Origin: a virus
Taxonomy: Duplodnaviria; Heunggongvirae; Uroviricota; Caudoviricetes; Autographiviridae
Reading direction: 5' to 3' (one strand)
Length of the DNA stretch: 5,187 nt
IMG/VR virus record: IMGVR_UViG_2778261646_000012
Shown: in pieces, positions 1,896 to 5,187 of the stretch
Layout of the letters: each line of letters opens with the position of its first letter
Numbering within the stretch: position 1 is the first letter of the stretch
The notes under the pieces: model-generated
Seen by the model: only the letters and a program-made list of their open reading frames with translations
Databases searched by the model: none
Told to the model about the DNA's origin: nothing
Position numbers and translations under genes: made by a program

Positions 1896-2234
1896 ATGAG
1901 AGACATTACAGCCAATGTGATCGTATCGATGCCTTCGCAACTCTTCACTATGGCGCGTTCTTTTAAAGCCGTAGCTAATGGCAAAATTTATATCGGTAAA
2001 ATTGACACTGATCCTGTAAATCCAGAAAACCAGATTCAGGTCTATGTGGAGAATGAAGACGGTTCTCACGTTCCTGTTTCGCAACCAATAATCATTAACG
2101 CTGCTGGATATCCTGTATATAACGGACAGATTGCCAAATTCGTTACCGTGCAAGGCCATTCTATGGCTGTTTATGATGCGTATGGTGCGCAGCAGTTCTA
2201 TTTTCCTAATGTGCTGAAGTATGACCCTGATCAA
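1896..2234 (+). other. P22 gp9-like head-binding (particle attachment) module of the tailspike
   Basis: Near-colinear similarity to the recalled P22 tailspike N-terminus up to the NVLKYDPDQ segment; similarity is lost downstream. The boundary is approximate. Confidence 0.75.
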
Positions 2235-4841
2235 CTACGGCAGCAATTAGAAGACCCAGATGGAGCGAATAAATACCCAAAACTTCAGATAGCAAGATGG
2301 AGAGACAGTTATGATGTAAGAGGTTGGGGGGCTATTGGTGATGGTGTTCATGATGATACATCAGCTCTATCAGAATTACTTTCTGTTGCAACAGGTGGTG
2401 AAAAGATAGATGGGCGAGGGCTTACTTTTAAAGTATCAACTCTTCCAGATGTCAGTCGATTTAAAAATGCTCGTTTTTTATTTGAGAGAATACCGGGTCA
2501 GCCTCTTTTTTATGCTTCTGAAGATTTTATCCAGGGAGAGTTATTTAAAATTACAGATACACCGTGGTACAACGCCTGGACGCAGGATAAAATGTTTGTA
2601 TATGACAATGTCATCTATGCGCCTTTTATGGCTGGAGACCGCCATGGTGTAAATAACCTCCATGTTGCATGGGTTCGCTCAGGAGATGACGGGAAGACCT
2701 GGACAACGCCGGAATGGCTTACAGATTTACATGAAAACTATCCCACAGTTAACTATCACTGCATGAGTATGGGGGTTGTCAGAAATCGCCTTTTTGCTGT
2801 AATTGAGACGCGGACCGTGAGAGGAAATAAACTGCAGGTTGCAGAGTTGTGGGATCGCCCAATGAGTCGCAGCCTTCGCGTTTATGGTGGTATAACGAAA
2901 GCAGCAAATCAGCAAGTCGCTTATATTCGCATTACTGATCACGGATTATTTGCTGGTGATTTTGTCAACTTCTCAAACTCTGGTGTTACAGATGTTACCG
3001 GGAATATGACGGTGACTACTGTTATTGATAAAAATACCTTTACAGTTACGACGCAAAATACCCAGGATGTGGATCAGAATAACGAGGGTAGATACTGGAG
3101 TTTTGGCACATCATTTCACTCGTCACCATGGAGAAAAACCAGTCTTGGAACTATTCCTTCTTTTGTTGACGGAAGCACTCCTGTTACTGAGATTCACAGT
3201 TTTGCGACGATTAGCGATAACAGTTTTGCTGTTGGCTACCATAATGGTGATATTGGTCCACGCGAGCTTGGGATACTCTATTTCTCTGATGCTTTCGGTT
3301 CTCCTGGTAGCTTTGTTCGCAGACGCATACCTGCAGAATATGAGGCGAATGCATCTGAGCCATGTGTAAAATATTATGATGGCATTCTGTATCTGACGAC
3401 CAGGGGGACATTAAGTACTCAACCCGGTAGTTCATTGCACAGAAGCTCTGATTTAGGTACATCATGGAATTCTCTTCGCTTCCCAAATAATGTTCATCAC
3501 TCAAACCTTCCTTTTGCCAAAGTTGGCGATGAGCTGGTTATTTTTGGCAGTGAGCGCGCATTTGGTGAGTGGGAAGGAGGAGAACCTGATAACCGTTATG
3601 CAGGAAATTATCCAAGAACATTTATGACCAGAGTTAACGTCAATGAGTGGAGTCTGGATAATGTAGAGTGGGTTAATGTTACTGATCAGATTTATCAGGG
3701 CGGAATAGTTAACTCTGCGGTTGGTGTTGGTTCAGTTTGTATCAAAGACAACTGGCTGTACTACATTTTCGGTGGGGAAGATTTTCTAAACCCATGGAGC
3801 ATAGGGGATAACAACAGAAAATATCCTTATGTTCACGATGGTCACCCGGCTGATTTGTATTGTTTCAGGGTGAAAATTAAACAGGAAGAATTTGTTTCAA
3901 GGGATTTTGTCTACGGAGCCACTCCTAACAGAACGCTTCCTACTTTTATGTCGACGTCAGGCGTGAGGACGGTTCCTGTACCCGTTGATTTCACAGATGA
4001 TGTTGCCGTCCAGTCACTGACTGTCCATGCAGGTACATCAGGACAAGTTCGCGCGGAAGTCAAACTTGAGGGTAATTACGCCATTATTGCGAAGAAAGTA
4101 CCGTCTGATGATGTTACCGCTCAGAGATTAATCGTTAGCGGCGGTGAAACAACGTCTTCAGCAGATGGTGCAATGATAACGTTGCATGGTTCCAGAAGCA
4201 GTACTCCACGTCGCGCGGTATATAACGCACTCGAACATCTTTTTGAGAACGGAGATGTTAAACCTTATCTTGATAATGTAAATGCTCTTGGTGGTCCGGG
4301 AAACAGGTTCTCGATAGTTTATCTTGGCTCCAATCCTGTGGTTACCAGTGACGGAACATTAAAGACAGAGCCGGTCTCTCCTGACGAAGCATTGCTGGAT
4401 GCCTGGGGTGACGTCAGGTATATCGCTTATAAATGGCTGAACGCTGTCGCTATAAAGGGGGAAGAAGGGGCGAGGATACATCATGGTGTAATCGCGCAGC
4501 AACTTCGTGATGTTCTTATTTCTCACGGACTCATGGAAGAAGAAAGCACAACATGCCGCTATGCCTTTCTTTGCTATGACGATTATCCCGCAGTATATGA
4601 TGACGTCATTACTGGCCAAAGGGAAATGCCGCTGACTGATAATGACGGGAGCATCATTGTTGATGAGGATGATAATCCAGTGATGGTAATAGAAGACATC
4701 ATTGAGCGCGTTGAAATAACGCCAGCAGGATCTAGATGGGGGGTCAGACCTGATCTCTTATTCTATATCGAGGCAGCATGGCAGCGCAGAGAAATGGATA
4801 AGATAAAAGCTAGGTTAGACTTAATAGAAGGGAAGCACTAA
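1896..4841 (+). CDS. Tailspike protein, endosialidase type (endo-N-acetylneuraminidase-like), 981 aa
   Basis: ATG at 1896 with GGAG (1884..1887) 8 nt upstream. The first ~113 aa ([11 protein letters not shown]...[23 protein letters not shown]...IINAAG...VTVQGHSMA...NVLKYDPDQ) closely match the P22 gp9 head-binding domain. The central region carries two sialidase Asp-boxes, and the C-terminus has a Ser-x4-Lys motif as in self-cleaving tail-fibre chaperone domains. Confidence 0.9.
4350..4838 (+). other. C-terminal intramolecular chaperone / autoproteolytic domain (peptidase S74-like), predicted to be released after Ser818
   Basis: VTSDGTLK at aa 816-823, with Ser818 (nt 4347..4349) and Lys823 (nt 4362..4364) spaced as in the Ser/Lys dyad of phage K1F endosialidase and related tail-fibre proteins. 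The ~160-aa acidic C-terminal domain is of the expected size. Confidence 0.6.
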
Positions 4842-4949
4842 ATGTTTCGTTGGCGTCAAAAATATGAACTGATCACATAAAGAAGTAAGTACATTGGCAA
4901 AAAACATTGACGTCAACGAAATTAAATATAAAAATTTAAATGCTTTTTA

Positions 4950-4978
4950 ATGACAAGAAAAGTAACTAGTGGTAAAAT
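4950..4978 (+). promoter_or_regulatory. Candidate sigma70 promoter with extended -10 upstream of the repeat-containing gene
   Basis: -35 ATGACA (4950..4955), 17-bp spacer, TGgTAAAAT extended -10 (4970..4978). Lies in a markedly AT-rich stretch (4881..4994). AGGA (4984..4987) sits 7 nt before the ATG at 4995. Predicted by eye only. Confidence 0.4.
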
Positions 4979-4994
4979 AACGTAGGATACTAAC

Positions 4995-5187
4995 ATGTCA
5001 AGACTCAAGACTCAAGACTCAAGACTCAAGACTCAAGACTCAAGACTCAAGACTCAAGACTCAAGACTCAAGACTCAAGACTCAAGACTCAAGACTCAAG
5101 ACTCAAGACTCAAGACTCAAGACTCAAGACTCAAGACTCAAGACTCAAGACTCAAGACTCAAGACTCAAGACTCAAGACTCAAGACT
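4995..5187 (+). CDS. neuO: 5' end of a neuO-like polysialic acid O-acetyltransferase gene with poly-heptad N-terminus (M-S-[RLKTQDS]n); truncated by the window end
   Basis: ATG at 4995 with AGGA 7 nt upstream. The frame reads M S then RLKTQDS repeated, encoded by the AAGACTC array. This matches the recalled 5' architecture of neuO on the CUS-3 prophage, which lies just downstream of the endosialidase tailspike gene. The catalytic part of the gene is outside the window, so the identification rests on the repeat and synteny. Confidence 0.7.
   Translation, partial: MSRLKTQDSRLKTQDSRLKTQDSRLKTQDSRLKTQDSRLKTQDSRLKTQDSRLKTQDSRLKTQD
5000..5187 (+). repeat. Perfect heptanucleotide tandem array (AAGACTC)n, 26 complete units plus 6 nt of a 27th, continuing past the window end
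   Basis: Read directly: period 7 with no mismatch from 5000 to 5187. All three plus-strand frames are stop-free through the array (codons CAA GAC TCA AGA CTC AAG ACT). The minus strand carries TGA in every unit. Confidence 0.97.

Follow-up and report, generated by a model that had tools for sequence, protein, structure and literature searches.

An endosialidase tailspike gene adjoining the phase-variable neuO locus in a CUS-3-type prophage of Escherichia coli K1

The IMG/VR virus record IMGVR_UViG_2778261646_000012, whose whole 5,187-nucleotide (nt) stretch is referred to below as the window, almost certainly represents the right arm of a P22-like (Lederbergvirus) prophage of the CUS-3 type from Escherichia coli K1, in which a tailspike gene is followed by a capsule-conversion switch. 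We listed the open reading frames (ORFs) of the window in all six frames, assigned domains through Pfam and RNAs through Rfam, and obtained a gene layout of the P22 type. As predicted from its domains and alignments, the tailspike has a head-binding domain of the P22 type linked to an endosialidase cleaving alpha-2,8 polysialic acid, which polymer constitutes both the K1 capsule and the phage receptor; and the gene that follows, as judged by its identity to characterized loci, is neuO, encoding a phase-variable polysialic-acid O-acetyltransferase. The gene, the repeat switch, the linkage to the endosialidase tailspike, and the role in phage resistance are all already known from the literature, and the prophage variant in question is the one found between pgl and bioA in strain CE10, to whose sequence the window is almost identical and with which the key experiment was done.

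The endosialidase tailspike

In the product of the tailspike gene Pfam recognized the Head_binding domain (PF09008, amino acids [aa] 1–113, E 2.3e-66), End_N_terminal, End_beta_propel (E 5.6e-232) with End_beta_barrel (E 1.7e-45) inserted in the propeller, End_tail_spike (E 6.6e-78), and Peptidase_S74 (aa 818–878). The first 140 aa matched head-binding structures of the P22 family—that is, the N-termini of tailspikes of the P22, Sf6, and CUS-3 type (PDB 1LKT, 2VKY, 8TVR)—while aa 146–817 aligned from end to end with endoNF of phage K1F (PDB 1V0E/3GVL; E = 0). The residues H350, R549, E581, R596, and R647, known to be the key catalytic residues of endoNF (PMC12632334), were conserved in five of five instances, as H250, R456, E488, R503, and R554 in the alignment with 1V0E. 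Beyond that part, residues 698–979 matched the structure of the endoNF chaperone domain (PDB 3GW6, E 3.5e-93); the catalytic chains of the solved structures stop at aa 817, and the chaperone domain starts at Ser818. In endoNF this C-terminal domain is released from the mature spike.

The window tailspike and the enzyme of the lytic coliphage K1F (1V0E, 3GVL) are alike in the catalytic part, in the chaperone domain, and in all the key catalytic residues, but differ in the virion adaptor at the N-terminus, which is of the P22 type in the former and of the T7 type in the latter, as well as in an insertion of seven residues (FVDGSTP) that the window tailspike carries relative to endoNF. With the CUS-3 endosialidase (ABQ88383.1) the identity extended to 968 of the 981 aa, with zero gaps; and that 99% identical product of siaK1 carries in the CUS-3 record an annotation of endo-alpha-sialidase activity with evidence from direct assay (evidence code IDA).

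The repeat-bearing gene and its relatives

A spacer of 153 nt separates the tailspike gene from an ATG that is followed by the dinucleotide TC and then by tandem AAGACTC units up to the end of the window. Tandem Repeats Finder (TRF) gave 27.1 copies with 100% matches and a score of 380, and the tract is far beyond chance. Only its plus strand can be coding, because the minus strand contains TGA; the plus strand is devoid of stops in every frame. The translation in the frame of the ATG takes the form MS(RLKTQDS)n, reading MSRLKTQDSRLKTQDS..., and this ATG–TC–repeat layout is exactly the published neuO signature, with two nucleotides separating the start codon from the inserted AAGACTC units and every three of these encoding one RLKTQDS heptad (PMC3046976). 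The window comprises the start codon and the repeat of neuO, the acetyltransferase body lying beyond base 5187, and its 26 full copies constitute a lower bound, the window end falling inside the 27th. A reading of the tract as 27 copies, and hence—27 being divisible by three—as phase ON, was considered and rejected, the 27th copy being incomplete and the tract running off the end.

The identity of the gene could be judged from related loci. The CE10 ORF with this same start and repeat is 258 aa long and has a match in PDB 3JQY, 'polysialic acid O-acetyltransferase' (E 1.8e-160). Of the related loci whose sequence continues beyond the repeat, all 20 (11 from genomes and 9 from IMG/VR) have the NeuO body, of 214 aa, directly after it, at an identity of at least 99%. 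NeuO is a left-handed beta-helix protein, an acetyl-CoA-dependent O-acetyltransferase that acetylates polysialic acid at O7/O9 (literature; PDB 3JQY). The repeat signature with its ATGTY prefix was present in 16 IMG/VR contigs, with an endosialidase gene, and no other type of tailspike, adjoining it in each of the 16, whereas a search for ATGTY(AAGACTC)3 in a collection with one genome per species gave no match in any species representative. No NCBIfam model reached the cut-off for NeuO or for the tailspike in a scan, which explains why NeuO appears in public records under the labels 'acyltransferase', 'hypothetical protein', and 'general stress protein'. The label 'acetyltransferase' is also found there, and copies in the OFF phase are annotated as a partial gene of 336 nt.

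The heptamer by itself is not diagnostic, because bare, exact (AAGACTC)3 arrays unrelated to neuO occur in at least 120 places in environmental metagenome-assembled genomes (MAGs). These arrays were rejected as relatives of neuO: they have no ATG prefix, no match to an endosialidase or to NeuO, and variable flanks. With 3–15 copies each, they were found in Planctomycetota, Acidobacteriota, Gemmatimonadales, Bacteroidota, a sponge symbiont of the Methylococcales, and others; several of the MAGs contained 3–6 separate AAGACTC loci, often flanked by the related heptamers GGACTCA, AAGCCTC, and AAGACCC. The arrays seem to form a general class of heptanucleotide short tandem repeats that occur dispersed.

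Slippage within the AAGACTC repeat has been established previously as what switches neuO, the gene being ON only at multiples of three (PMC3046976). The genome loci that we fetched had 14, 18, 18, 19, 19, 34, 34, 38, 39, and 60 copies, in addition to one interrupted tract of 12 plus 17, and the IMG/VR loci had from 3 to 32; in the genome loci the ORF starting at the ATG was full length (258–356 aa, ending in ...AKLTQ) only when the copy number was divisible by three, a stop otherwise occurring after 49–108 aa. These results are in line with a published survey that covered 64 complete genomes, where the range was 3–53 copies with 42 of the 64 (65.6%) in the OFF phase, and where subpopulations of 20, 21, and 22 copies were measured within single colonies of one strain (PMC13001214). 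Three clonal poultry isolates contained respectively 19 copies, 14 copies, and the interrupted tract, although their flanks of ~9 kb had no more than 12 mismatches, which combination shows directly that the tract changes within short periods. The interrupted tract, from strain 729_270514_x_12 (NZ_CP160121, positions 6747–6971 of the retrieved locus), consists of 12 copies, 22 degenerate nt (AAGATCTCGAGACTCAAGTTGC), and 17 copies, and stays in frame to yield an ORF of 291 aa; it could be genuine, an imperfect tract by which slippage is damped, or else an error in a long-read consensus.

A preliminary description of this stretch had proposed that the tailspike depolymerizes the polysialic-acid capsule, that the next gene O-acetylates the same polymer, and that the latter is under stochastic ON/OFF control. 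The first two proposals are borne out at the level of sequence: the one by the domains, the five catalytic residues, and the identity to a CUS-3 enzyme annotated from direct assay; the other by the near-identity to CE10, the NeuO body in the 20 loci, and the match of the CE10 product to 3JQY. The third is sustained by the layout of the repeat in the window, by the restriction of full-length ORFs to multiples of three in related loci, and by the differences in copy number among clonal isolates.

The CE10 locus (E. coli O7:K1, NC_017646, 834.7–840.3 kb) is the closest relative of the window, being identical over positions 128–4999 (4,872 bases) but for two differences: a single-nucleotide polymorphism at 705 and a 1-nt indel at 3781. 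The latter corresponds to one extra C inside the CE10 tailspike gene (at ~7654 of the retrieved CE10 locus), a base that the window is without, and the CE10 gene is accordingly flagged in RefSeq as a frameshifted pseudogene whereas that of the window is intact. The extra C is either a real inactivating mutation or an error of the 2011 assembly, which distinction matters for virion production by the CE10-type prophage. The two loci also differ in the repeat, with 18 copies (ON) in the CE10 RefSeq record versus at least 26 in the window, and at the left border, where CE10 continues into a ClpP-like gene and the window ends in IS26; upstream of neuO, in contrast, the window is identical to the functional CE10 allele. 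In many other K1 genomes, including phiv205-1, NCTC11151, DSM 30083, and SF-088, the tailspike gene is split by an insertion sequence (IS) of the IS3 or IS21 family, and neuO is still annotated.

CUS-3 itself (CP000711; E. coli RS218; siaK1, neuO, int) has the same gene order and strands as the window, the same intergenic region, and the same ATG-plus-repeat layout, with 98.8% DNA identity over window positions 1463–5132 and a neuO poly-psi tract annotated there. To the left of ~1463, however, the window departs from the CUS-3 mosaic, with an ant of the CE10 type and with a ClpP-like gene where CUS-3 has its hkc genes; moreover, the codon after the ATG is TCA in the window and TTA in CUS-3. 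The insertion sites differ as well: CUS-3 is inserted at argW and has int adjacent to neuO, whereas the CE10 copy adjoins ybhB-bioA with no integrase after neuO. For the CE10 variant the site has been described as pgl-bioA, and such prophages as frequently decayed (PMC9659370).

The prophage of AR_0017 (NZ_CP024886, positions 4986–8400 of the retrieved locus), located next to torT, has an immI region and an endosialidase tailspike gene that are 99.4% identical to those of the window, but no neuO. It shares the first ~90 nt after the tailspike gene, and its homology to the window ends at ~4933–4934, 61 nt before the neuO ATG, which break delimits the neuO cargo segment on its left and shows that the tailspike circulates without the acetyltransferase. 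By this comparison, neuO behaves as separable cargo with an upstream segment of its own.

Proposed conversion of the receptor and its alternatives

In the mechanism that we propose, the tailspike endosialidase would bind and cleave the alpha-2,8 polysialic-acid capsule that serves as the phage receptor; the AAGACTC tract, located 2 nt after the ATG, changes in length by slipped-strand mispairing, as related genomes and the literature show, only multiples of three keeping NeuO in frame; and the NeuO made by the lysogen O-acetylates the same capsule polymer, with conversion of the capsule as the consequence. In experiments by others, such conversion gave partial protection from lytic K1 phages and protection from neutrophils, as well as altered interactions with Siglecs and serum. 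We infer as a final step that endosialidase tailspikes may cleave or bind the acetylated polymer less well, which would lead to superinfection exclusion at the receptor, in a manner similar to that of gtrABC in P22.

Published experiments bear on several of these steps. When neuO was deleted in CE10, the plaques of a K1 phage measured ~3.8 mm versus 1.15 mm and lysis was complete instead of partial, which phenotype was complemented and which the authors frame as a prophage-encoded receptor modification (PMC9659370). In the sequence type (ST) 95 strain MS7163, the use of a neuO deletion together with a locked-ON allele allowed acetylation to be located by mass spectrometry at O7/O8/O9; there neuO protected against a lytic K1 phage—the authors use the term superinfection exclusion—and against neutrophils, raised sensitivity to serum, and left bladder colonization unaffected (PMC13001214). 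Effects of neuO on Siglecs and macrophages have been described in addition, along with its location between the endosialidase gene and int (PMC8653822).

The comparison with P22 concerns the position of the switch. In the P22 record the order is mnt, arc, sar, ant, gene 9 (the tailspike), gtrC-gtrB-gtrA on the opposite strand, attP, and int; in that of CUS-3 it is ant, siaK1, neuO on the same strand, int, and attL; and in the window Arc-like ORFs, the sar RNA, Ant, the tailspike, and neuO succeed one another, so as to match the P22 slot that lies after immI and the tailspike gene and towards att/int. In P22 this slot, with attP lying between gtrA and int, is occupied by gtrABC, genes which like neuO are expressed from the prophage and modify the polysaccharide that the phage's own tailspike recognizes, the product blocking adsorption (PMC10461980). 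The proteins, for their part, are unrelated: the P22 gtr genes encode three membrane proteins that glucosylate the O-antigen, whereas NeuO is one soluble beta-helix acetyltransferase, and the downstream gene displayed no likeness to GtrA, GtrB, or GtrC. The strands are different as well: gtr runs in the direction opposite to that of the tailspike gene, and neuO in the same direction. Because the proteins are unrelated, the parallel is an analogy of position and function, not homology or membership in a family. The preliminary description had placed the gene in the same genomic slot as gtrABC, which the layout of the P22 record confirms within the bounds of that analogy; and its further suggestion—that lysogenic conversion of the receptor might alter susceptibility to superinfecting K1 phages or host immunity—finds support in the partial protection observed with neuO in CE10 and MS7163 and in the immune changes observed in the latter.

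Among the other explanations, the one with the most to recommend it, which we nevertheless consider rather unlikely, is that the adjacency is incidental: the site after the tailspike, at the end of the prophage, would be a general cargo (moron) slot of P22-like phages, and neuO would be kept there for benefits directed to the host, such as immune evasion, resistance to desiccation, and colonization. In its favour are the AR_0017 prophage, which shares the tailspike and the 90 nt downstream of it but is without neuO after the break at ~4934, the persistence of neuO where the tailspike of the prophage has a frameshift or an IS insertion, and the documented neutrophil, Siglec, and serum phenotypes. 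Two independent studies by knockout and complementation, however, found a phage-protection phenotype, and the endosialidase gene adjoining the neuO signature in 16 of 16 IMG/VR contigs fits a capsule-specific pairing, though it could also reflect a single ancestry. Very improbable, in our estimation, is that the locus is here a decaying remnant, with a truncated or permanently OFF neuO, a silent relic of a tailspike, and no conversion of the receptor. The ClpP-like gene is indeed truncated by the IS26 end at 1–127, CUS-3-like prophages have been reported as prone to decay, the 42 of 64 complete genomes were in the OFF phase, and the rest of neuO lies beyond the window; yet the tailspike ORF is intact here, unlike that of the CE10 RefSeq record, the upstream region of neuO is the same as in the functional CE10 allele, and the full NeuO body is there in each related locus whose sequence extends through the repeat, the OFF state being reversible by design. 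Practically negligible is the chance that the tract has no connection to neuO, being a short tandem repeat of a generic kind or an artefact of assembly. The occurrence of (AAGACTC)3 in those 120 or more unrelated places, along with the termination of the window inside the tract as would be expected of a short-read contig, might suggest so; but the tract with the ATGTY prefix was confined to the vicinity of endosialidase genes in the 16 viral contigs and absent from the representatives of other species, the 153 nt upstream are identical to those of CE10 neuO, and the frame and the heptad fit the published description.

Several points weigh against receptor conversion by an active switch as the account of this locus. 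The phage protection was partial in both published studies, and these were made with lytic K1 phages instead of CUS-3 virions or tailspike; in the accessible literature we found no study of how O-acetylation affects the tailspike of CUS-3 itself. Masking of the receptor may not be the main function of neuO, resistance to neutrophils, evasion of Siglecs, and resistance to desiccation being other documented benefits. The NeuO catalytic region is situated outside the window, so that its presence in this genome is deduced from near-identical loci; and the ON/OFF phase of this copy is not callable, because the window stops within the repeat. Finally, the IS26 end cuts the prophage at base 127 and decay is common among related prophages—in CE10 the tailspike is flagged as frameshifted, and other strains bear IS insertions—with which circumstances in view the tailspike may here never be made into virions.

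If, under receptor conversion, O-acetylation were to block the CUS-3 endosialidase specifically, a lysogenic population would be mixed, with ON lysogens resisting sibling or related virions and OFF cells remaining adsorbable, so that the switch would tune the spread of the prophage in addition to immune evasion by the host; we put this forward as a speculation of low probability. A lesser possibility is that the pgl-bioA variant cut by IS26 represents a case in which neuO is retained as a defence gene while the phage decays.

Layout of the window and practical consequences

The features of the window are collected in Table 1. To the left of the tailspike gene the immI antirepressor control circuit looks complete, since a full-length sar is present between arc and ant as in P22. 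The ClpP-like gene, reduced here to a fragment by IS26, is intact in CE10 and other relatives, where it measures 537 nt. The occurrence of an IS26 end at the left border and of a variable-number tandem repeat at the right one suggests that the window is an entire short-read contig, broken at two repeats.

Table 1. Features located in the window, with positions in nucleotides from its first base.
Feature	Position	Strand	Remarks
IS26 end	1–127		Closes with the IS26 terminal inverted repeat ...TTTGCAACAGTGCC; matches at least 5,000 plasmids labelled 'IS26 family transposase'
ClpP-like protease gene remnant	109–306	-	Interrupted by IS26; 65-aa fragment left
Arc/Mnt-type ribbon-helix-helix repressor	306–596	-	
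Arc/Mnt-type ribbon-helix-helix repressor	604–804	+	
sar antisense RNA	799–864	-	Rfam RF00262, 67.6 bits, E 6e-13
Antirepressor Ant	866–1795	+	KilA-N plus P22AR_C
Endosialidase tailspike gene (siaK1 type), intact	1896–4841	+	981 aa
P22-type head-binding (virion attachment) domain	1896–2234	+	aa 1–113; Pfam PF09008; PDB 1LKT, 2VKY, 7SG7
Endosialidase catalytic part (predicted)	2331–4346	+	aa 146–817; N-terminal extension, beta-propeller with inserted beta-barrel, stalk
C-terminal intramolecular chaperone domain	4347–4838	+	aa 818–981, from Ser818; Peptidase_S74; PDB 3GW6
Inverted repeat, 15 nt	4845–4921		TTTCGTTGGCGTCAA / TTGACGTCAACGAAA; 47-nt spacer, arms 93% complementary; directly after the tailspike stop
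Start of neuO-specific cargo segment, with candidate promoter and ribosome-binding site	4934–4994	+	Break in AR_0017 homology
5' end of neuO	4995–5187	+	ATG at 4995–4997, TC, then AAGACTC x26 plus AAGACT from 5000 to the window end

Within the spacer between the tailspike gene and neuO, the inverted repeat is conserved in CUS-3, CE10, and S88 as well as in the AR_0017 prophage that is without neuO; its predicted RNA fold had an energy of -21.1 kcal/mol (z -3.9). We searched this spacer for an intrinsic terminator with a T-run and found none, so that the inverted repeat, in lacking such a run, is not a classical terminator. Its right arm overlaps TTGACG, a -35-like hexamer that forms part of one of two candidate promoters (TTGACG-17-AAAAAT at 4907–4935; the other, ATGACA-17-TAAAAT with a TG, at 4950–4978); these promoters, together with a candidate ribosome-binding site (AGGA at 4984–4987, 7 nt ahead of the neuO ATG), were recognized through consensus match only.

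The useful outcome in the present instance is the correct annotation of the locus along with a warning for phase calling: short-read contigs that end inside the neuO repeat are not usable for decisions between ON and OFF. O-acetylation of the K1 capsule affects its immunogenicity, the interactions with neutrophils and Siglecs, and the sensitivity to therapeutic K1 phages, for which reason there is practical value in recognizing the neuO locus in genomes.

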